Origin: Nitrospiraceae bacterium
GTDB lineage: Bacteria > Nitrospirota > Nitrospiria > Nitrospirales > Nitrospiraceae
Direction: 5' to 3'
Length of the DNA stretch: 64,000 nt
NCBI GenBank assembly: GCA_050246315.1
Contig: JBFWWG010000005.1
Span: 32,001-96,000 of the forward strand
Below, in pieces: positions 5,935 to 38,462 of the stretch. Under the pieces are notes generated by a model that ran no database searches, was not told the DNA's origin, and saw only the letters and a list, made by a program, of their open reading frames with translations. The position numbers and the translations under genes are program-made. The stretch's first letter is position 1. Each line of letters starts with the position of its first letter.

Positions 5935-6104
5935 CCCGCACTATTCAAGATGACTTCTATCCCAACCGCCGTGCGACCCGTTGTCACCGAAGAGCAACGG
6001 ATGCCCCGGCTGCGACGAGCTTGGGAGCGAGTGCTTGGCTCCCAAGCTCGTCGCAGCGGCGTATCGGCGGTTGCAGTAGAAGCATTCATGAATAATGTGG
6101 GCTA
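5932..6104. repeat. MITE-like palindromic element, related to 18509-18785
   Basis: Imperfect ~40-bp TIRs ending ...tcatgaataatgtgggcta; internal gcttgggagc...gctcccaagc hairpin. Confidence 0.7.
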
Positions 6105-6447
6105 ACGCTCCTTCCATGCTCGCTCGTTTCCTCTTCTCCACAGACATGGGTGTGACCATCATTGCATTCGAAGCAATGGCATCCCTGTTGGTCCGACTAC
6201 GGCCGTGGAGTGAGCACCGCCCTTCACTGAAATCCGATTGACCTCGCGTGCACACTCCGGGAGCGAAGAACCAACAGGGTGCCGTTCATGTTGCTCTTGT
6301 AAGACTCTGCCTTTTCACCCGAATAGAGCCGCGCTCCGCACCGGGGCGGGCATGCCGGCCATCAGCTCTGGTCCTGCTGCGCACGGTTTGACGCGACGGT
6401 CCGGAAGCCGTACTCTGCGTGTGTGACGCCTACACATGGAGGAGGGT

Positions 6448-6660: not shown

Positions 6661-7051
6661 CACCTCCGTCTGATCGTTGGTGCTGCAGCGGCCTCGGGTT
6701 GATGAAGACGACGCCCATGTACGAGCCTTTCGCCGGCATCTTGATTTCGGCGATGGACTCTTTCTCATCGGCAACATTCTTCAGGAACTCCTCGACGGGC
6801 TCCGCTCCACCAGACAGTTCGACCACCTATTGACTCTGCTTGACCCGTACCCGCTTCTCGACTTGGACCGACAGACCTATGTCGATGCCGCCCGCCTCCG
6901 ATCTCTGTGCCGCTCAAAAGGCGTCACTGCCAGCCCGATCGAGTTTTTGATTGCAGCGGCATGCTGCCAGCACGGCTATCCTCTCCTGACGGCCGATAGA
7001 GAGTTTCAGCAAATCGCCAATCATTGTGACCTCGTCACATTGTCCGTCTAA
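6644..7051 (+). pseudogene. vapC: VapC PIN-domain toxin with premature stop
   Basis: GTG start, VVDTSV*SL with TGA at 6671-6673 where Trp is usual; downstream QELL and LLTADREF PIN motifs are in frame. Confidence 0.85.
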
Positions 7052-7342
7052 TGCTCCTTCCATGCTCGCTCGTTTCCTCAATCCTCGTCGGGGTGAGGAT
7101 GGCGGGCTTTCGGTGCGACTTGCGAGAGGTTGCATGGTCTCGATGGTTTGGTCCGCCGAAGGTGAGACGGCGAGCACTGTTCGCAGTTCCGTTCGGACGC
7201 AGTCCCAGACGGAACAAGTTGCACAGCCGAGCGCCGACGAGGCCGTGCGGTCGCACCCCTCGCCGGAGCAGAGCGGGCCAGCCGTCCTCATACGCTCCAC
7301 TATCCTGTAAGACTCCCCCTTCTCAGACGACTACCCGCTATA

Positions 7343-18508: not shown

Positions 18509-18785
18509 TAGCCCACATTATTCATGATGGTTCGTGACGAAACCGCTCAGACGCCATCCGTCGGACCCATTGCATGGAGAAGAGCAACGGGTACCCCCAC
18601 ACGGAGTCCCGAGGGGGCGAGGCATACTTGAAGCAGTATGTCGAGGCCACGCGGGGCGTGCCTGGCCGCTTGGGAGCCGAGCACTCGCTCCCAAGCTGGT
18701 CGCAGCCGGGGCGACCCGTTGCTTATTGATCGCAACGGGTCGCCCCGGCGGTTGCAGTAGAAGCATTCATGAATATTGTGGGCTA
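18509..18785. repeat. MITE-like element
   Basis: 19-bp TIRs tagcccacattattcatga / tcatgaatattgtgggcta (1 mismatch); internal hairpins shared with 5932-6104. Confidence 0.8.
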
Positions 18786-18942
18786 AATACCGTGTTCTCC
18801 AGACTATCGCAAGAGGTGGCAGCGTCCCTATAGGGCTGCCCGGCCGGTCTCACTCCTTGCACGAAGGGCGAAATTGACGGCCTAGCCAAAAGTATTGTAG
18901 CTTTCACCCCAAGATTTCCCGTTTCTCGTTTGTCCCTCCGGA

Positions 18943-29197: not shown

Positions 29198-31672
29198 ATG
29201 ACATCGGCCCCATCGCCCGAAGGCCCAGACCGCGAAGCCGGTTCTCCTCCGTCTCACAAGCAGGCCGAACAGATCCTCACCCCATCTCACATACAATTGG
29301 AACAGGAACTCCTCAAGCGCAATGAGGAGCTGGAGAGAACCAGCGCCGTCCTGCGTGAGATCGTCGAGGGGGTCGAGGCGAAAGTCGGTGAACAGTTCTT
29401 TTCGTCACTGGTCCAACGGCTTGCCACGGCGTTGGGAGTCGACTACGCCTATCTCTCGCACCTCAGCCCCGACGGCACGACCTTTCGCTCGCGAGCGGGC
29501 TGGGGCAAAGGCCGACCCCTCCCACCGTTCGACGTGCCGGCGCGCGGCCCCTGCGAAATCGTGTTGACTCGCAAAGTCGTCCACCATCCGGATGGGCTGC
29601 GCTCGCTCTACCCGCAGGTCCAACTCATCCAAGACATCGGCGTGGACAGCTACTGCGGGGTGCCGATCGTCGATACGTCGGATCGAGTTGTCGGGCACCT
29701 GGCCATCATGGATTCGCGGCCGATGCCCGATCCGGTGCGCGCCACGTCGATACTCGGCATCTTCGCGACGAGGGCCGCCGCGGAGATCGAGAGGTTGTGT
29801 TATGAACGGGCGCTTCGGAAGAGCGATCTCATGTTGCGGAAGATCGACGAAGGGACCGCCGCCACGACGGGAGCCGACTTTTTCAATTCCTTAGTGAAGA
29901 GCCTGGCCGAAGCGCTCCAGATTCAATACGCCTTTGTGTCGAAATTTGTCGAAGGCAGTCGATTGCGCGTTCGCACGCTTGCGTTCTGGAAAGGGGACGG
30001 TTTTCTCGACAACTTCGAGTATGACCTGCTTCATACGCCCTGCGAACGAGTCCTGGCTGGGGAAGTCTGCCTGTTTCCCGATCACGTCCAGGACTTGTTT
30101 CCTCACCATCGAGAGGACCTCGCCAAGCTGGGGGTGGAGAGTTACCTCGCGATCCCGGTCTCGGACCGTTCCGGAGGGGTGATGGGGCATCTCGCGGTGA
30201 TGGATACTAAACCGATGCAGGATGACGCCCGTGTGCTGTCCGTGTTCAAGATTTTCGGGGTCCGGGCCGGGGCCGAGTTGGAGCGCGCGCAACTGGAAGC
30301 CCGGATCAAGGAGAGTGAGGAGCGACTCCGCGACCTATTCGACGAGGCGCCCATTGCCTATGTGAACGAAGGGCTCGACTCCAGATTCATCAAAGCCAAT
30401 CGGACGGCGATGAAGACCCTCGGTATCACGCCGGATCAAGTGGAAGAGACCTATGGATTCTCGTTCATTCCCGACACGCCGGATGCGCAGCGCCGATTGA
30501 AGGACGCGTTCGAGTCGATCGGCAAGGGCATCGATACGAGCGGGGTCGTGCTGGAATTGCGGCGCAAGGACAACGGCAAGCCCCTCTGGATCCAATGGTG
30601 GTCTCGGCCGGACCCGAGCGGCACCTACACACGCACGATGTTTCTGGACATTACGGAGCGCGTGCTGATGGAGCAGGAAAGGGCTCGGTTGGAGGCGCAG
30701 AACACCTATCTGCAGGAGGAAATCAAAGGAAGCCACAACTTTGAAGAGTTGATCGGCTCCTCGCCCTCTCTGAAGAAGGTGTTGAAGAACGTCGAACGGG
30801 TCGCGCCGACCGACTCGACCGTGCTCATCACTGGAGAGACGGGCACGGGGAAGGAGTTGATCGCTCGGGCGATCCATAATGTGAGCCCTCGTAAGGCCAA
30901 GCCGCTCGTCAAGGTCAATTGCGCGGCGATCCCAGCCGGCTTGATCGAGAGCGAGCTGTTCGGCCATGAGAAGGGAGCCTTCACCGGCGCCTTGACCCGC
31001 AAGATCGGACGATTCGAGTTGGCGGACAAGGGCACGATCTTTCTCGACGAGATCGGCGAGTTGCCGCTGGATCTCCAATCCAAGCTGCTTCGGGTGCTGC
31101 AGGAAGGTGAATTCGAGCGCGTCGGCGGCTCGCAGACCTTCAAGGTTGCGGTGCGCGTGATTGCCGCGACGAACCGTGACCTGGAGCAGCAGGTCCGGGC
31201 CGGGCATTTCCGCTCCGACCTCTATTACCGATTGAATGTGTTCCCGATTCACGTGCCTCCGCTTCGGGAGCGCGAGGGGGACATTCCGCTCTTGGTGCAG
31301 TTTTTCACGCGAAAATTTGCCGTCCAGCAGGGCAAGAAGATCGAGCGAATCCCGGAACGAATGATGGCGGCACTCCTCCGGTACCAGTGGCCGGGAAATA
31401 TTCGGGAACTGGAGCATGTCGTTGAGCGGGCCGTCATCCTCAGCGAAGGGTCCGAGCTGGAGCCGATCGAGTGGTTGACCGCGGGCGCGTCGCAGCCCCG
31501 CATCGACAAGGTACCGACGCTCGAAGAATTGGAACGGGAGCACATCCGGACGGTGCTTGAACAGACCAACTGGCGCGTGAGCGGCGAGAAGGGCGCGGCC
31601 GCGTTGCTGGGCCTGAAAGCCACCACGCTCGAAGCGCGCATGAAGAAACTCGGCATCGTCAGGCCTGCCTGA
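29198..31672 (+). CDS. sigma54-dependent activator, FhlA-like (GAF-GAF-PAS-AAA+-HTH)
   Basis: Two internal GAF repeats; [30 protein letters not shown]-terminal HTH. Confidence 0.93.
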
Positions 31673-31683
31673 ACCCTGTCACG

Positions 31684-31808
31684 CGTCATCCGTCAAACGT
31701 CATTCGTCAAACGCAAGCGTCAATCGCCACGCGCCACACGAGGAAGAGCGTGAGGTCCTTCCGCATCGGTACGTGTTTCGATTGACGAATGACGGATGAC
31801 GGATGACG
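31684..31808. repeat. inverted arrays of heptamer repeats (cgtcaNN / NNtgacg) containing left copy of the DGR-flanking direct repeat
   Basis: cgtcatc cgtcaaa cgtcatt cgtcaaa ... attgacg aatgacg gatgacg gatgacg; 31737-31788 recurs at 37101-37153. Confidence 0.8.
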
Positions 31809-32278
31809 AGTCGTGTCTCACCGAGTTCAGGATGCGGTGAGCGGCGTGAGCTTGACATCTCCCAAGACGATCCAGTGACTCATCACGACTCATTTCAGTA
31901 GGAGAGGAATTAGTCCCCCGGCACCGGGCATCAAGACCAAGCAGGAGCCGATTCCGGCGTGCTCTGCTTCGTTACCTGCGCCTGCGAGAATGCGGCCGGT
32001 GGCCGCGATGTTGGCGCCAGTAGTTCTTGCTCCATCTCTGCGCGAGCTACCCTCTCCAGGGCCGCTTGAATCGACCACCCATCCCGCCGCGAGTCACTGA
32101 TCCTGCGAGAATGATTTTCGTACCTCGGTCACTTATGACCTCATCGCTCAGCCAACGACTCCAACTCTCCACCTGGGAAAATACGGGTATTTCCGCTCGC
32201 GAGTAGATTGACAGGCTCCTGACTAGGAAGTAGCCTGTCACCATTCCGCGCCAGAAATCTAAGGCTCCACTTGTCAAA

Positions 32279-35167
32279 ATGTTGCCCGCGAAGACGCAGC
32301 CGAAGTTCCTTCTCTTTCTGAGCCATGCCGGCACAGATACGGACGCGGCCCGGACCCTCAAGAAGCGTATCGAGGCGGCGCCGGCCGCGATCGAGGCTGG
32401 TCTCAAGGTGTGGTTCGATAAGGATGATCTGCAACCTGGACAGGAATGGCAAGTGCAGCTTGAAGAGACCATCGAGAAGCGTGCGACCGCCTTCGCGGTC
32501 TATGTCGGGTCGCGTGGGCTGGTGAATTGGGTTGAGCAGGAAGTACGGCTGGCCGTATCGCGGGCGACGACGAGCGGTGGTCAATTCCCATTCATCCCGA
32601 TCCTTGCGGCGCAAGCAGAGGCGTCTGCTGCGCTGCCTGGCTTTGTTCGACAGTTCCAGGGCGTGCGTGATGTCGAGAACCGTTCGGATGAGTTTCAAAA
32701 GCTGCTGGCCGCAGTAGTAGGAAGAGCCGGGGCAGGCAACCTCCAAGTAGAAGCTGAGCCGTTCTTCGGCTTGAACGCCATCGATGAAACGCGCAATCAC
32801 CTGTTCTTCGGTCGTGAAAAGGCTACTCAGGAGTTGCTTGCGCGGCTCCGAAAGGGACGCCTCGTGATGGTGACGGGCGATAGCGGGTGCGGCAAGTCCT
32901 CATTGGTCCGCGCCGGCTTGGTTCCCCGCTGGCGTGGCGGGGCGTTGGCTGAACAAGAAGGTCGTCGCCCGGATGGAGAGAGTTGGCATGTGGTCGGAAT
33001 GCGCCCCACCGCGAATCCTCGTCGCGCGCTTGGCGATGCGGTATTCAGCGCCGCTTCACAGCTGGGGTGCAGCGCCGAGGATCGTGGGATCTATAAGGCA
33101 TGGGCCATGGGTGATGACCCAGAGAAGCGACGGGATGGTCTGCGGTGCGGCCTCGACGCACGCACCACCCGCACCTTGCTCATCGTGGACCAGTTCGAGG
33201 AGCTCTTCACACTGACCCCCGCGGTGCAACGGGCGTCATTTGTGACGCTGCTGCTCGATCTTGCAGATCCGTTGGATCGTCGCTTCGCGGTGGTGCTGAC
33301 GATGCGGCGGGACTACTACAATCTGTGCTCGGAATTTCCGGGGCTCTACAACACTCTCGAGGCTGATGACCGGGCAGCCCGCTACCTGCTCGATCGGATG
33401 CAACCCGAAGAGTTGCATCGTGCCGTCACCGAGCCGCTGAAGCTTGCCGGCGTCGTGGAGGGGGACCGCGAGGCGCTGGCGAAGAGCGTGCTGCAGGACG
33501 TCGGCGACCGAGCTGGCGATCTTGCACTCGTGGAGTTCGCGTTAACCGAAGCATGGCGGCGACGAGGAGAATACGGGGATGATTTACTGCGTGCCTATAC
33601 CGCGGTGGGGCGTGTGGAAGGCGCGCTCGCGAGGGCCGCTGAGCGGGTGTACCTCGAGGAGCTTGGCGGTGAGGCGCATGACGACGTGATCCAAGCGGCC
33701 TTCATCAGGTTAGTGCGGCTGGGTGATACCGGCGGGGCGACACGGCGTGTGGCTCGGCGCGGTGAGTTCGATGACGGGCGATGGGTCTTGCTCCAGATGT
33801 TGGCCAGTGAGAAGGGCAATCGTCTCGTCTTAATCAGCGGGGGCGAAAACGCGGAGGCCGCCGAAATTGCGCATGAGGCGCTGGTCACGCAGTGGCCACG
33901 GTTTCAACGGTGGCTACAAGACTCGGCGCCCGAAAAGCGCACCTTGGACGCACTGATCGAACGAGCAGCAGGATGGAGCAAGGTGGCTGACGGCAACGAG
34001 AAGAGCGGCTGGCTTGCAGCAGGCGTCGAACGGGAGACGTTCGCGCAGCTCTTGAAGAACCATCGAGGATGGCTTTCTCCCACTGAATGTACGTTTGTCG
34101 ATGCAAGCATTGAAGCGGAAGTCAAGCGCGTTCAGCGGGAACAAGAGATCCAGCGACAAGAACTCCTCCAGGCAAGGCGGCTGGCGGAGGAAGCGGCCAA
34201 GCGGGAAGAAGCGGAACGGGCGCGGGCTGCCGCGGCAGAACAGGCACGCCAGGCGGCAGAGAAGGCGCGGCAAGCGGAGCAAGCCAGAGCGCAAGAAGCG
34301 GAGCGGGCACGTGAAGCAGCGCAGCGAGCTCAGCGACGACAATGGTACCTCAATCTGGCGCTCCTGATCCTCTTTCTCGGGTCCGGGTTGGTTATGTGGC
34401 TGTGGAAGGAGGGAGTGAACGTTCAATATGCCGGATCGATTGCGCTGGCTCGGTTGCATCTTGTGCAGGTCTCTGAACCGGAGATGGTCGAGATTCCAGG
34501 AGGAACGTATCGGCCAGGCGAGGTCCGCAATCCGGCTGAGGGTGAGAAATCGTCGCCAGTCACCGTCAAGAACTTCAAGATCGGCAAGTATGAAGTGACG
34601 TTTCACGAGTATGACCGGTATGTGGCCTTGACTGGTGGTCGACTCCCAAACGATGAAGGCTGGGGTCGTGACAGACGACCTGTGATCAACGTCTCGTGGG
34701 AGGACGCGACGGCCTATGCGAAGTGGCTGTCGGAAGCGACCGGTAAGCGCTATCGCTTGCCGACGGCAGCGGAGTGGGAATATGCCGCTCGGAGCATAGC
34801 CAAGGGCAAGGACGACATCTGGGCGGGGACATCCAAGGAGGCGCAACTGAAAGAGTATGCGGTGTACGAGGCACAACGCACGGAGCCGGTTGGGAGCAAG
34901 GAGGCCAACAGTCTCGGCCTGTATGACATGAGCGGCAATGTCTGGGAGTGGGTTGAGGACTGCTGGCATGAGAATTATCAAGGAGCGCCGACGGATGGCT
35001 CCGCTTGGCTCGAAGCAGGCGGTGCGGATTGCGGCCGGCGCGTGCGCCGGGGCGGGTCCTGGAACAGCGAACCGGGGACCCTGCGTGCATCGTACCGGTA
35101 CGGGGGCGACCCGGTGTACCGGAACTTCGACATCGGCTTCCGTCTGGTCCAGGACATTTCCGAATAA
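32279..35167 (+). CDS. DGR target: TIR - STAND (nSTAND1-like) NTPase - coiled coil - TM - FGE-sulfatase/CLec domain
   Basis: FLSHAGTD/VWFDK/WVEQE TIR; PFFGL...FFGRE, GDSGCGKSSL, IVDQFEELF, HEALV-x-x-WPR; TM WYLNLALLILFLGSGLVMWLW; RLPT-x-AEWEYAAR, GLYDMSGNVWEW, RGGSW, GFRL. Confidence 0.9.
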   Translation: MLPAKTQPKFLLFLSHAGTDTDAARTLKKRIEAAPAAIEAGLKVWFDKDDLQPGQEWQVQLEETIEKRATAFAVYVGSRGLVNWVEQEVRLAVSRATTSGGQFPFIPILAAQAEASAALPGFVRQFQGVRDVENRSDEFQKLLAAVVGRAGAGNLQVEAEPFFGLNAIDETRNHLFFGREKATQELLARLRKGRLVMVTGDSGCGKSSLVRAGLVPRWRGGALAEQEGRRPDGESWHVVGMRPTANPRRALGDAVFSAASQLGCSAEDRGIYKAWAMGDDPEKRRDGLRCGLDARTTRTLLIVDQFEELFTLTPAVQRASFVTLLLDLADPLDRRFAVVLTMRRDYYNLCSEFPGLYNTLEADDRAARYLLDRMQPEELHRAVTEPLKLAGVVEGDREALAKSVLQDVGDRAGDLALVEFALTEAWRRRGEYGDDLLRAYTAVGRVEGALARAAERVYLEELGGEAHDDVIQAAFIRLVRLGDTGGATRRVARRGEFDDGRWVLLQMLASEKGNRLVLISGGENAEAAEIAHEALVTQWPRFQRWLQDSAPEKRTLDALIERAAGWSKVADGNEKSGWLAAGVERETFAQLLKNHRGWLSPTECTFVDASIEAEVKRVQREQEIQRQELLQARRLAEEAAKREEAERARAAAAEQARQAAEKARQAEQARAQEAERAREAAQRAQRRQWYLNLALLILFLGSGLVMWLWKEGVNVQYAGSIALARLHLVQVSEPEMVEIPGGTYRPGEVRNPAEGEKSSPVTVKNFKIGKYEVTFHEYDRYVALTGGRLPNDEGWGRDRRPVINVSWEDATAYAKWLSEATGKRYRLPTAAEWEYAARSIAKGKDDIWAGTSKEAQLKEYAVYEAQRTEPVGSKEANSLGLYDMSGNVWEWVEDCWHENYQGAPTDGSAWLEAGGADCGRRVRRGGSWNSEPGTLRASYRYGGDPVYRNFDIGFRLVQDISE
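35033..35152 (+). repeat. DGR variable repeat (VR)
   Basis: Ungapped 120-nt match to 36719-36838; 18 of 26 mismatches are at TR adenines. Confidence 0.9.
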
Positions 35168-35224
35168 CCCTTTGTCCTTTGTCCTTTGACCCTTTACCCT
35201 TCCGAAATAGCTCTTCCGAAACAC

Positions 35225-35261
35225 CCGGCCCTCGCCCGATGTCGAATCGGGCGAGGGCCGG
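35225..35261 (+). promoter_or_regulatory. perfect 16-bp hairpin downstream of VR (candidate DGR target-recognition cruciform)
   Basis: ccggccctcgcccgat-gtcga-atcgggcgagggccgg; no U-tract follows. Confidence 0.65.
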
Positions 35262-35295
35262 CTCAGAGAATTCTGATAGCTCAGGTTGATGACAC

Positions 35296-35652
35296 ATGAC
35301 GACCAGCCTTCCCCAGGCGGTGCAATCCTGTCACGAGTTACTGCTCTGGCTGATACCCCAGCTCGACAAGTTCCCGCACTCGCGCCGGTTCACTCTGGGC
35401 GAGCGATTGGAAGCCGGACTCCTGACGGTCTTGGAGCTGTTGGTCGAGGCGGCCTATACCCACAATAAAGCGGTTTTCCTGCACCGCGCGAACCTGCGAT
35501 TGGAGGTCGTCCGCCACCTGTGGCGGCTGGCGCATGAACTCAAAGTGATGGCGACCCGGCAGTACGAGCATGGCGCGAAGCTGATCGATGGCCTTGGGCG
35601 GCAGATCGGTGGCTGGCTCCGCAGCCAGCCGCCGCCGGAGCCGCGCTCATGA
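35296..35652 (+). CDS. avd: DGR accessory variability determinant Avd
   Basis: 118 aa; KFPHSRRFTLGERL...GRQIGGW; ATGA-coupled to RT. Confidence 0.92.
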   Translation: MTTSLPQAVQSCHELLLWLIPQLDKFPHSRRFTLGERLEAGLLTVLELLVEAAYTHNKAVFLHRANLRLEVVRHLWRLAHELKVMATRQYEHGAKLIDGLGRQIGGWLRSQPPPEPRS

Positions 35653-36731
35653 CCAGACTCGATGACATGTGGCTGCGAGTCGTGAGTTTCGAGAACCTGC
35701 TCGCCGCCTATCGGAAGGCGCGGCGGGGCAAAGGTAGCAATCGGCCCGTTGCCGAGTTCGGCCTGCACCTCGAACGCGAGCTGTTCCTGCTCCAGCGCGA
35801 GCTTGAAGACGGCACCTATCGACCTGGAGCCTATCGCCTGTTCACAATCTACGAGCGCAAGCCGCGCGTCATCGCCGCGGCGCCGTTCCGCGACCGAGTC
35901 GTGCACCATGCGATCATGAACGTGATCGAATCGCCGATCGACCGGACATTCATTGCCGACTCCTACGCCTGCCGGCCGGGCAAGGGGGTCCATGCGGCGG
36001 TGGATCGCTATCAAGCCTGGGCGCAAACGTATCGCTATGTCTTGAAAATGGACGTGCGCCACTACTTCCTCTCCATCGACCACGAGTTGCTCAAGGCGAA
36101 GCTCCGGCGACGGATCACTGACTGCCGCACGCTGGACTTGTTGGATCGCATTATCGAGAGCTCTCCGAGCGGAGAGTCAGGCCCCCGCTACTTTCCCGGT
36201 GACGATCTCTTCACCCCGTTGGAACGGCGTGCGGGCATTCCCGTCGGCAACCTGACGAGTCAGTTCTTCGCCAATCTCTATCTCGACGATCTGGATCACC
36301 ACATGAAGCAGGTCCTGCGGGTCCGGCCGTACCTCCGCTACGTGGACGATATGGTAGTGCTGGACCATGACAAAGCCAGGCTGGCCGACGTTCGCGAGGC
36401 TATCCGTGAGCGGCTTGCGGCCGACCGACTCAGGCTTCATCCTGACAAGGCGCATGTGACGCGAACGGCCGACGGACTGAACCTTCTCGGCTATGTGGTC
36501 TATCCGGGTCGGCGGCGATTGCGAAACGATAACGGTCACCGCTTTGCTCGCAAGCTCCGAGCGATGGCGCAGGCCTATCGATCGGGGCGTCTGGAATGGG
36601 CTAAGGTTGTGGCCTCGACGCAAAGTTGGGTCGGCCACGCTCAGCATGCGGATACGGAGGGGCTGCGCCGAGCCATCTTCTCCCAGGCTGTGTTTGCAAG
36701 GGGAACAGGCCACAAGACGGCCAGCGTGTGA
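35649..36731 (+). CDS. DGR reverse transcriptase
   Basis: [27 protein letters not shown]; no maturase or endonuclease domain. Confidence 0.95.
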
Positions 36732-36838
36732 TCCGGGGCGGGGCCTGGAACAACAAACCGGAGAACCTGCGTGCTTCAAACCGGAACAGGAACAACCCGG
36801 ATAACCGGAACAACAACATTGGTTTCCGTCTCGTCCAG
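36719..36838 (+). ncRNA. DGR template repeat (TR)
   Basis: 11 AAC codons in the VR-equivalent frame; overlaps last 13 nt of the RT gene. Confidence 0.9.
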
Positions 36839-37100
36839 TCCGCCCGCACGGTACGCGACAGCGTGCCGGCCCGGAGCCGGACGGTCCACGGACCGGCCGG
36901 GTGAGGCAGCGGGTGTCCATGAGCCCGTTTCCCGGCCTCCCGCTGACGCGGTAACGCCAAAGAGAGGGCCTGGGGTGAGGCGATCGTGGCCGGTCGGCTA
37001 GGCCGCCGGCCCCGCCGCTGCGCTGCTGGGAGTGCTGACTGCTGTGATGAACCAACCGTGATGAATCATGGGGGTAGCCTTCGTCATTCGTCAAGGGTCG

Positions 37101-37153
37101 CACGTGGAAGAGCGTTGAGGTCTCTCCGCATCGGTACGTGTTTCGATTGACGA
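37101..37153 (+). repeat. right copy of direct repeat flanking the DGR
   Basis: 29-nt exact core tccgcatcggtacgtgtttcgattgacga (37125-37153 = 31760-31788). Confidence 0.85.
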
Positions 37154-37180
37154 TTGGCGCATGTCGCAGGCCGGGCTCCG

Positions 37181-37216
37181 CTCCCAATATTTTGGGAGGG
37201 TCCCAATAATTTAGGA
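37181..37216. promoter_or_regulatory. tandem palindromic sites, candidate enhancer for a sigma54 activator
   Basis: ctcccaatattttgggag and tcccaataatttagga, about 100 bp upstream of a -24/-12 motif. Confidence 0.55.
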
Positions 37217-37316
37217 ATCCCTTCGTCTCCTCCGCTCTGTATCTCGCCCCGACCTCCAAGCCGAAGTCCTTCAATCCGCGCGTACTTAGACAGTTCCAGA
37301 TCGATTCACCGACCTG

Positions 37317-37332
37317 TGGCATTGCGGTTGCT
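37317..37332 (+). promoter_or_regulatory. sigma54 -24/-12 promoter
   Basis: TGGCAT-tgcgg-TTGCT, GG-N10-GC spacing. Confidence 0.7.
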
Positions 37333-37384
37333 GTATCCCCCTGCGTCACGAGGATCGGCGAAGCATCTGGCGGTTGACAGGGCG

Positions 37385-37666
37385 ATGTTCAGAATCACAA
37401 GCAAGACGACAGACCGGAGGGCGCTGGTGGTCCTCGAAGGAAGGCTGGTTGGCGAATGGGTTCAGGTGCTCAACGAGGAGTGCACGGCGCTGATGAAGAC
37501 GGGACGGGCGCTCTCCCTGAATCTCTCGGACTTAGCGTTTGCGGATCAAGACGGAATCGAACTCTTGAGACAACTCGACCGACTCAACGTGCCATTCATT
37601 CAGTGCCCGGCATTCATCGCGGCACTCTGTAAAACGAAGGGGGACGGCCATGCTCACGCTCATTAA
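37385..37666 (+). CDS. STAS-like small protein
   Basis: LEGRLVGEWV...LNLSDLAFADQDGIELL. Confidence 0.75.
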   Translation: MFRITSKTTDRRALVVLEGRLVGEWVQVLNEECTALMKTGRALSLNLSDLAFADQDGIELLRQLDRLNVPFIQCPAFIAALCKTKGDGHAHAH

Positions 37667-38462
37667 GGAAACGGCGGCTCAAGGTTTTGGATACGCGGTG
37701 GAGAGGAAGGCAAGTACGCCGGAACGTTCTCCGAAAAGCCGGACGAATTATCCGGACGACTCCGGCCCCGCTTCCTCGCACGGCTTGCCGGAAGAGTGGG
37801 AACTGGTCTCGGCCTTGGCCGCCGGTGAAGAGGCCGCTTTCGCAAAGCTCGTCCATCAATACCAGAAGCCCTTGTTTCGCCAGGCCTTGGCCTATGTGTC
37901 GAGCGAAGCGGTAGCCGAAGAGGTCGTCCAGGAGACCTGGCTCGCGGTCATGGACAGCATCAAGCGATTTGAAGGCCGGTCCTCGTTCAAGACCTGGCTC
38001 TATCAGATTTTGATCCACAAGGCCAAATCGGCGGGCGTCAAGGAATCTCGCCAGATCCCGTTCTCCGCGATGGCCGATCAGGATGAGGAGTCGGACGGAA
38101 TGCCCTCCGAAGCACGGGGAAGCGAGGCCGTCGCTCGCGAGGCCGGCGGTTCCTGGACGATGGGCGTGGCGGACGAGGACACACCAGAGGATCAAATGTT
38201 GGCCGAGGAGTGCCGCCGTGAGATCACGCGGGCCATGAGGGCCTTGCCGACTGTCCAGCGACGGGTGATGGAACTCTATCATTTTGAGGAATTGACGTCC
38301 GAAGAAGTCTGCCGGCGACTGAAGATCAGCGAAAGCAATAAGCACGTGTTGCTGCATCGAGGCAAGAATCAGGTCAAGAAAGCCGTGGACGGGTACTTTG
38401 CGGGAGACCGATGTCGTCACAATACCGTCCGGCAAGTTTACAGGCTGGGGTTGGCGGCCTAG
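37650..38462 (+). CDS. ECF RNA polymerase sigma factor
   Basis: AEEVVQETWL...FEGRSSFKTWL region 2; LP...VLLHRG region 4. Confidence 0.88.
   Translation: MLTLIKETAAQGFGYAVERKASTPERSPKSRTNYPDDSGPASSHGLPEEWELVSALAAGEEAAFAKLVHQYQKPLFRQALAYVSSEAVAEEVVQETWLAVMDSIKRFEGRSSFKTWLYQILIHKAKSAGVKESRQIPFSAMADQDEESDGMPSEARGSEAVAREAGGSWTMGVADEDTPEDQMLAEECRREITRAMRALPTVQRRVMELYHFEELTSEEVCRRLKISESNKHVLLHRGKNQVKKAVDGYFAGDRCRHNTVRQVYRLGLAA

Follow-up and report, generated by a model that had tools for sequence, protein, structure and literature searches.

A probable chromosomal diversity-generating retroelement with a membrane-spanning, immune-receptor-like target in a Nitrospiraceae genome

Introduction

Is the 3' end of a gene for a receptor-like protein in a Nitrospira-like bacterium being rewritten by a reverse transcriptase (RT) that is encoded next to it? 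The question was raised by a stretch of 64,000 nucleotides (nt), here called the window, which comprises positions 32,001 to 96,000 of contig C5 (C5:32001-96000; JBFWWG010000005.1) in the 4.39-Mb, 30-contig genome of a Nitrospiraceae bacterium (assembly GCA_050246315.1, here G000). An earlier note, made from the letters alone, had read positions 32279..36838 of the window as a complete diversity-generating retroelement (DGR), composed of a target gene with a variable repeat (VR), a hairpin, avd, an RT gene and a template repeat (TR). All of the features described below lie on the forward (+) strand, and positions are those of the window unless another contig is named. Nitrite oxidisers of the Nitrospira type, which live in dense aggregates, play a key part in wastewater treatment and in soils.

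If the locus works like the homologous Bordetella phage system, its avd-RT-TR region would be transcribed, a complex of Avd and RT would bind a structured RNA that follows the TR, the TR would be copied into complementary DNA (cDNA) with misincorporation opposite adenines, and the adenine-mutated cDNA would replace a VR. A shared 3' flank motif, usually accompanied by a hairpin, would mark each VR. The locus is read here as a chromosomal DGR that diversifies the tip of a membrane-spanning protein resembling an immune receptor, a reading to which we give a probability of roughly 0.88.

Template and variable repeats

The TR (36719..36838) and the VR (35033..35152) were aligned without gaps and showed 26 mismatches in total. 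Changes were found in the VR at 18 of the 33 TR adenines and at 8 of the 87 other TR bases (Fisher exact test, odds ratio 11.9, p = 4.3e-7). The manual count in the earlier note was reproduced exactly by this computed alignment, and the adenine bias that had been taken as the signature of mutagenic retrohoming was retained. In an independent repeat search no direct repeat of the window was longer than this pair (D1, 121 nt, 79 %, spacing 1686), and the homology ends abruptly at either edge. The 11 in-frame AAC codons claimed for the TR are present; opposite them the VR reads AAC, AGC, ACC, TAC, TAC, GGC, GAC, TAC, AAC, TTC and GAC. The eight mismatches at other bases were T>C (three), T>G (two), T>A, G>T and C>G, and five of them, as read from the alignment, are synonymous third-position changes.

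Among related cassettes the same adenine bias was seen in 29 TR/VR pairs from 22 of 34 loci, and 13 of the 29 pairs had no mismatch other than at adenines.

Variation among natural strains

At least 75 % of the cassette's sampled words were held by 20 of the 24 public runs listed, from 7 studies; two of these runs may be the source of the window. Natural variation was followed in contigs, not raw reads, from runs of four other studies (X3, X7, X11 and X20). One contig each from X3, X7 and X11 spanned 31629-35207 (3,579 bases compared) with exactly 18 differences and no gap. The same 18 differences were found in X20 on a piece covering 34404-35207, joined by a difference-free piece covering 32070-34430. 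All 18 fall at 35066-35130, inside the VR, each opposite a TR adenine (hypergeometric P about 1e-12 for 18 of 18 differences at such sites within the 120-nt VR), while the other 3,459 bases of the 31629-35207 stretch had 0 differences. Two to three contigs of X20 had differing letters at several VR sites; this sample holds more than one VR haplotype.

Mutagenic homing occurs in nature: in these contigs VR variation is confined to sites opposite TR adenines, which is the polymorphism that the earlier note had named as a check. An exact 30-mer of the target gene gave no match in JGI metagenome contigs.

Avd, reverse transcriptase and the RNA after the template repeat

The avd gene (35296..35652) encodes 118 amino acids (aa). 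Its product scored 95.4 bits against the curated equivalog model NF033474 of NCBIfam (DivGenRetAVD; cut-off 80) and matched Pfam bAvd at 2e-16. The RT gene (35649..36731; 360 aa, Pfam RVT_1) begins 4 nt before avd ends, in an ATGA at 35649-35652, and its stop codon (36729-36731) falls within the TR, 13 nt from the start of the repeat. Both genes are intact and translationally coupled, and the TR lies over the RT stop, as had been claimed.

The closest solved relative of the RT was chain 8ub7_A (3.3e-48), which is the full-length Brt of phage BPP-1; the subsequent PDB matches were a group II RT (6.8e-20) and retron-type RTs (7e-10 or weaker). Identity to BPP-1 brt was 35.8 % across 92 % of the length. 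The part of a cryo-EM preprint (10.1101/2023.10.23.563531) drawn on here gives K29, F66, R74, I76, I181, G182 and Q187 as template and dNTP contacts of Brt, and K28, F65, R73, I75, V199, G200 and Q205 of the window RT align with them in the same order.

The repeats might instead be an ordinary duplicated domain fragment beside an RT of group II intron or retron type. The top NCBIfam model of the RT was indeed the group II intron RT/maturase TIGR04416, and several database records call its homologues 'retron-type'; the score of 141.2 bits, however, is far under the cut-off of 300, and the retron model NF038233 gave 57 bits against a cut-off of 235. An RT tree was built from 40 rows: the window RT, a paralogue on contig C3, RTs of 23 of 50 related loci, two further DGR-like open reading frames (ORFs), BPP-1 Brt, nine group II intron RTs, each of which exceeded the TIGR04416 cut-off, and three retron-like RTs, one above and two below the NF038233 cut-off. 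The 28 DGR-like rows, BPP-1 Brt included, fell on one side of a branch with a Shimodaira-Hasegawa-like approximate likelihood ratio test (SH-aLRT) value of 100; support was 89 for the group II rows and 99 for the retron-like rows. The tree is a quick search without bootstrap in which the retron rows are long-branched, and the DGR-like label was assigned by similarity, with Brt as the sole independent reference. In this phylogeny, which the earlier note had suggested, the RT falls with BPP-1 Brt and away from the RTs of group II introns and retrons. An Rfam scan of 31000-38000 at E up to 1 gave no match, neither intron nor retron RNA, and Avd is present. Ordinary divergence leaves both the adenine bias and the adenine-only natural polymorphism unexplained. 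The model scores, the tree and the polymorphism refute the duplicated-fragment account, and we give it practically no credence.

The closest relatives of the RT came from Nitrospirales and Nitrospira bins (71-80 % identity), and the next from Methylococcales, other Gammaproteobacteria, Thiomargarita, Competibacteraceae and one Thermodesulfobacteriota bin.

About 160 nt on the 3' side of the TR are conserved over 20 sequences from several phyla (alignment A1). RNAalifold placed 32 pairs in six helices on this alignment, in which 96.1 % of cells were paired, compared with 35-50 % when the partners were slid; changes on both sides were found in 19 pairs, compared with 7-11 when slid, and 0 of 500 shuffles matched any of the observed pairing measures. 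This covariation defines a structured non-coding, Spacer-like RNA at 36839..36995, and because of it the element extends to about 36995: the parts listed in the earlier note were all found, and the end at 36838 has to be moved. Foremost among the helices is a 10-bp stem closed by a YACG tetraloop, in keeping with the Avd-binding stem-loop of the preprint cited above, where UNCG-type loops downstream of the TR are given for 207 of 278 DGRs. A promoter and terminator scan gave nothing usable on the + strand.

The target protein

The target gene (32279..35167, 962 aa) was analyzed by Pfam, PDB sequence search and hydropathy. Its product carries an N-terminal TIR_2 domain (aa 13-143, nt 32315-32707; Pfam 8e-14), a central nSTAND1 NTPase (aa 161-568, nt 32759-33982; Pfam 4e-89) with a P-loop-like GDSGCGKS motif recognized by eye, and a C-terminal FGE-sulfatase/C-type lectin (CLec) domain (aa 733-957, nt 34475-35149; Pfam FGE-sulfatase 1.5e-51) that holds the VR, which is a layout of the STAND-sensor type. 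In the PDB sequence search the C-terminal domain resembled PvdO (5e-37), formylglycine-generating enzymes were also matched, and the solved DGR variable protein TvpA (Treponema denticola variable protein 1, 2y3c) matched aa 820-957 (2.7e-17). The VR occupies codons 919-958 of 962, the last 40 full codons ahead of the final 5 codons of the gene, and lies within the Pfam match; the Pfam and TvpA matches support its predicted position in a CLec fold, where the earlier note had placed it.

One strongly hydrophobic segment, with a hydropathy peak of 2.04 at aa 691, lies between a charged helical stretch and the lectin-fold domain and is predicted to be the single transmembrane (TM) segment (aa 688-711, nt 34340-34411). 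Arginines on its N-terminal side suggest a topology with the N-terminus inside and the C-terminus outside. The target looks like a single-pass membrane receptor, with the TIR and nSTAND1 domains predicted to be cytoplasmic and the hypervariable CLec domain predicted to be periplasmic. Judged from domain content only, it is most likely a sensor like the nucleotide-binding leucine-rich repeat receptors (NLR-like), in which ligand binding would lead to STAND oligomerisation and then to TIR activity. Among the targets no PADLOC model of a complete known defence system was matched; TIR, SIR2 and P-loop pieces were the only matches.

Other cassettes and variable repeats in the genome

The genome was surveyed for cassettes by BLAST with the TR and VR, followed by base-by-base comparison. 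A second intact cassette was found on contig C3, with identities to the window of 90 % for the TR, 79 % for the RT and 83 % for Avd. Between the C3 TR and its local VR there are 17 differences, and between this TR and a remote VR on C14 there are 18, in both cases at adenines only. The window TR differs from a remote VR on C4 at 14 positions over 114 nt, all adenines, with a match at the other 100 positions; against a VR on C18 it shows 15 adenine differences and 4 at other bases. The five VRs so compared lie at window 35033-35152, C3:246498-246618, C4:22024-22137, C14:41788-41908 and C18:30408-30522. A sixth VR, on C14, is badly diverged. The best explanation of these comparisons is that the two intact RT/TR modules have at least five dispersed VRs between them as recipients, some reached in trans.

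Decayed remnants follow several of the VRs. A 32-aa RT fragment (C4:21481-21576) is found after the C4 VR; the C14 VR is followed by a TR-like copy with 28 adenines and its own Spacer-like RNA and no RT; and a 31-aa Avd fragment is found after the orphan, badly diverged C14 VR. The C14 remnants are located at C14:18558-19209 and C14:40318-40598 of G000. Far from being stand-alone, the window cassette belongs, with one other intact cassette, to a network that also comprises remote targets and decayed cassettes.

The target layout is TIR-nSTAND1-CLec on C5 and C4 and DUF4062-nSTAND1-CLec on C18; on C3 a SIR2 ORF overlaps an nSTAND1-CLec ORF, both C14 loci have TIR-CLec targets, and C1 encodes a more distant trypsin-CLec protein. 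The targets appear to exchange N-terminal modules on a shared plan. A single hydrophobic segment is found ahead of the CLec domain in four of the seven CLec proteins of the genome, namely three of the four nSTAND1-bearing targets checked and one TIR-CLec target that has no NTPase.

In the C3 cassette, at C3:246483-249286 of the minus strand (L001 8483-11286), the SIR2_2 ORF (295 aa; ThsA-like by PADLOC, 2e-23) overlaps the start of the nSTAND1-CLec ORF by 4 nt, so that the effector is either a separate coupled gene or one half of a split fusion. A second or third VR downstream of the TR is common in related cassettes (L015, L017, L018, L020, L021, L031 and L038); the window cassette has one local target only.

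Signals after the variable repeat

A pyrimidine-rich run of the CCTTTG type (35166-35202) follows the VR and includes the flank motif CTTTGACCCTTT (35184..35195). In its general form, CTTT[GT]ACCCTTT, the motif has 6 occurrences in the 4.39-Mb genome when both strands are searched, all of them no more than about 45 nt past the ends of the six VR-type CLec genes. In related loci it was found exactly in 19 of 27 VR flanks and with at most two substitutions in 24 of 27, and 20 of its 21 matches in 216 kb of such loci stand directly after a listed VR.

The hairpin reported in the earlier note is real: a GC-rich inverted repeat at 35225..35261 pairs over 16 bp without a mismatch around a loop of 5 nt. 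Its folding energy as DNA is -27.8 kcal/mol (z = -5.1 against 200 shuffles), and no T-run follows it. The stems after the C3 and C4 VRs are identical to this one and the loops differ. Perfect stems of at least 8 bp were present in 16 of 33 VR flanks, compared with 3.7 % of 1000 control windows, and their sequences vary among lineages. After each VR in the genome the order is a pyrimidine-rich run and then, usually, a hairpin; the module of motif and hairpin is absent after the TR.

The last 19 nt of the window VR differ from the TR at 3 sites, and this end is identical for the VRs on C3, C4 and C18. The initiation of mutagenic homing (IMH) site therefore equals its TR counterpart (IMH*) for these three VRs, and it does so also for the C14 VR that is matched by the C3 TR, giving 4 of the 5 TR-matched VRs. 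Wu et al. (2018, PMC5758913) state, in the part drawn on here, that where IMH and IMH* are identical recognition must reach downstream. For this reason CTTT[GT]ACCCTTT is a candidate for the signal that would discriminate recipient from donor.

The template of the adjacent variable repeat

Several points weigh against the reading given at the outset. Eight non-adenine mismatches are many for this clade, at least seven being found in only 3 of the 29 related pairs, and those at TR positions 36775 and 36802 sit inside the mutagenised tract and are kept in both VR alleles. One identical VR allele is common to three studies, from which it follows that turnover is not fast. In the strain of the other studies 35207-35295 is replaced (87 nt by 48), and its avd-RT has 51-73 differences and 16 gaps relative to the window. 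No public RNA run contains the locus, and the proposed topology and receptor function of the target derive solely from hydropathy and domain names.

Each natural VR allele differs from the window's TR at 17 or 18 adenines and at the same eight other bases. cDNA of the window's TR would have erased the mismatches at 36775 and 36802, and since all eight persist in both alleles this TR is unlikely to have been the exact source of the adjacent VR. The DGR could accordingly be real and its adjacent TR and VR uncoupled: the VR would have been written by an earlier or different TR, and the RT/TR module, having arrived by recombination, would now serve only the C4 target. Besides the persistent mismatches, this account would explain why the C4 VR equals the window TR at every non-adenine base over 114 nt, why divergence from the other-study strain leaps from 0 to about 5 % just past the VR, and why the TR of that strain has C at 36820, like the VR. 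On the other hand, IMH and IMH* normally differ in the founding system, so that the three mismatches at the 3' end are no obstacle to the adjacent pair, and among DGRs counted as active one target can show up to seven non-A differences and another none (both from the part of PMC5758913 drawn on here); the window VR has, moreover, retained the flank motif and a perfect hairpin. We regard full uncoupling as a possibility of lesser weight.

Relative to X3, X7, X11 and X20, window positions 35207-37298, which take in the spacer, avd, RT, TR and a further 450 nt or so, diverge by about 5 % and carry indels, and near-identity resumes from about 37269. This divergence looks like a module-sized recombination tract or a chimera. 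If the window were an assembly chimera, with the target from one strain and avd-RT-TR from another, the mismatches would be artificial. The assembly has 30 contigs, the closest relatives are all metagenome bins, and the identity break at 35207/35295 is sharp, with near identity at the far end. The two possible source runs nevertheless hold 1.00 and 0.99 of 473 sampled 31-letter words from 32279-36900, junction-spanning words included, and the C4 VR of the same assembly fits the window TR perfectly. Because those runs hold 0.99-1.00 of the words, a chimeric contig is the lesser alternative and ranks below exchange of the module; we consider it improbable. On the simplest reading, lineages have exchanged the RT/TR module beside the window VR, and the exact template of this VR was a TR other than the window's.

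Two candidate donors were rejected. The TR-like copy on C14 (C14a) as donor of the window VR left 15 adenine and 14 other mismatches, and for gene conversion as the origin of the other strain's avd-RT, C3 shares no more than 9 of the 22 variants listed. That the adjacent VR is a dead relic, as the eight non-adenine mismatches might indicate, is weakened by the adenine-only natural polymorphism and survives only in the form that the window's TR was not the writer.

Chromosomal setting and mobility of the cassette

Thirty ORFs between about 14.6 and 56.3 kb, about 18 kb on each side, were examined by Pfam; none was of phage type, and the genes recognised were housekeeping, regulatory or metabolic ones only. 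The chromosomal setting, which the earlier note had derived from a lack of phage genes nearby, therefore holds.

An imperfect direct repeat of about 90 nt brackets the 5.3-kb cassette, with a left copy at 31718..31809 (repeat families D4, D5 and D12) and a right copy at 37082..37174 (repeat search and congener comparison); the copies are about 84 % alike. In two congeners, G082 and G081, the upstream sigma-54 activator gene continues directly into the downstream STAS/ECF-sigma region, and the empty site (L108, L109) has a single copy of the repeat (flank identities of 96 and 93 % in G082, 87 and 80 % in G081). As judged from these alignments, the cassette is an insertion that is missing from the two congeners. 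A contig joining 31710 to 37151 was also present in each of X3, X7 and X11, at depths of 4.5, 26.4 and 27.9; the cassette contigs had depths of 9.4, 34.7 and 22.2, and the two together roughly equal the depth of the flanks (about 13, 52-65 and 45). This fits the co-existence of near-identical strains with and without the cassette, although metagenome joints of 85 % likeness may stem from other organisms. The cassette has no recombinase gene, and the flanking repeat was not found around the other cassettes of the genome.

The right part of the flanking repeat (31776-31811; TCGATTGACG, then GACG-type repeats) belongs to a short dispersed family found at about a dozen other places of the genome in both orientations (C4:175452-175483, C1:614817-614848 and window 61351-82, among others). 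The left copy holds the inverted pair CGTCAATCG / CGATTGACG. Near-identical short repeats were also seen far from the DGR, at 6065-6133, 7048-7079 and 18746-18786 (41 nt 98 %, 32 nt 97 %).

A working model would join these elements. A portable 3' flank module of motif and hairpin, and not IMH/IMH*, would mark CLec genes as targets; two RT/TR modules would rewrite a dispersed family of NLR-like, membrane-spanning receptors armed with TIR or SIR2 even after the targets' own cassettes have decayed; and cassettes would move as 5-kb units into a repeat of about 85 nt without a recombinase of their own. We put this model forward tentatively, as a speculation that is likelier to fail in some part than to stand.

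Comparison with known systems

A literature search on DGRs in connection with Nitrospira or STAND/TIR turned up no paper devoted to DGRs of Nitrospira; supplements, which were outside the search, may list them. The architecture of the window locus is already described in print. Doré et al. (2024, PMC10907252), in the part drawn on here, report that the DGRs of Thiohalocapsa PB-PSB1 and of 'clade 5D' diversify STAND NTPase sensors with a central nSTAND1 or NACHT domain, a C-terminal FGE/CLec VR and sometimes TIR or peptidase N-termini, with several DGRs per genome, incomplete loci, diversification in nature and transposon-driven duplication. All of these features recur in the window genome, the likeness being one of architecture. 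The host differs, being Nitrospira-like, and Nitrospira is named in that part of PMC10907252 only in the title of a reference. Relative to the same source, the targets of the window genome differ in having a TM segment that separates the NTPase from the CLec domain (three of the four nSTAND1-bearing targets checked), an arrangement that would put the membrane between these two. Kaur et al. (2020, PMC7159879), again in the part drawn on, tie FGS domains to DGRs in conflict systems, and Wu et al. (PMC5758913) describe remote targets and non-A differences and give inverted repeats for 34 % of DGRs. The flank motif, the predicted TM segment between NTPase and sensor, and the cassette as an apparent strain-level insertion, all three seen as sequence patterns, may be unreported so far.

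The locus extends the published DGR-diversified STAND 'antigen sensors' to another phylum and does not overturn current understanding. Among Nitrospira-type nitrite oxidisers it is a clean and well-supported instance in which an immune-receptor-like protein undergoes targeted hypermutation, and several independent metagenomes show the VR changing exactly where the mechanism predicts. It is also compact experimental material, with two paralogous RT/TR modules whose TRs can be told apart, five VRs whose best-matching TRs are known, a conserved short flank motif as a possible homing signal, and natural strains with and without the cassette.

The BPP-1 DGR (mtd-avd-TR-brt) shares with the window element a homologous RT, Avd, a TR and VR of about 120-134 nt that differ specifically at adenines, a VR at the 3' end of a CLec-fold gene followed by a GC-rich inverted repeat, and a structured RNA on the 3' side of the TR. 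The BPP-1 element is phage-borne and the window element chromosomal; the gene order is avd-TR-brt in BPP-1 and target-avd-RT-TR, with the TR over the RT stop, in the window. The target of BPP-1 is a tail fibre, whereas that of the window is a 962-aa protein of predicted TIR-STAND-TM-CLec layout. Unlike that of BPP-1, the window hairpin stands about 70 nt past the VR, behind a conserved pyrimidine motif.

The TvpA DGR of Treponema denticola resembles the window element in its FGE-type CLec variable domain and, according to the part of PMC5758913 drawn on here, in having one TR that serves several remote targets. TvpA is a lipoprotein without TIR or STAND domains, and the host and RT lineage differ from those of the window. 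With the antiviral STAND proteins (Avs and bacterial NACHT proteins), as treated in the part of PMC10907252 drawn on here, the target shares the tripartite logic of effector, STAND NTPase and sensor. The sensor of Avs and NACHT proteins consists of TPR-type repeats, whereas that of the window protein is a retroelement-diversified lectin fold that is probably extracytoplasmic.

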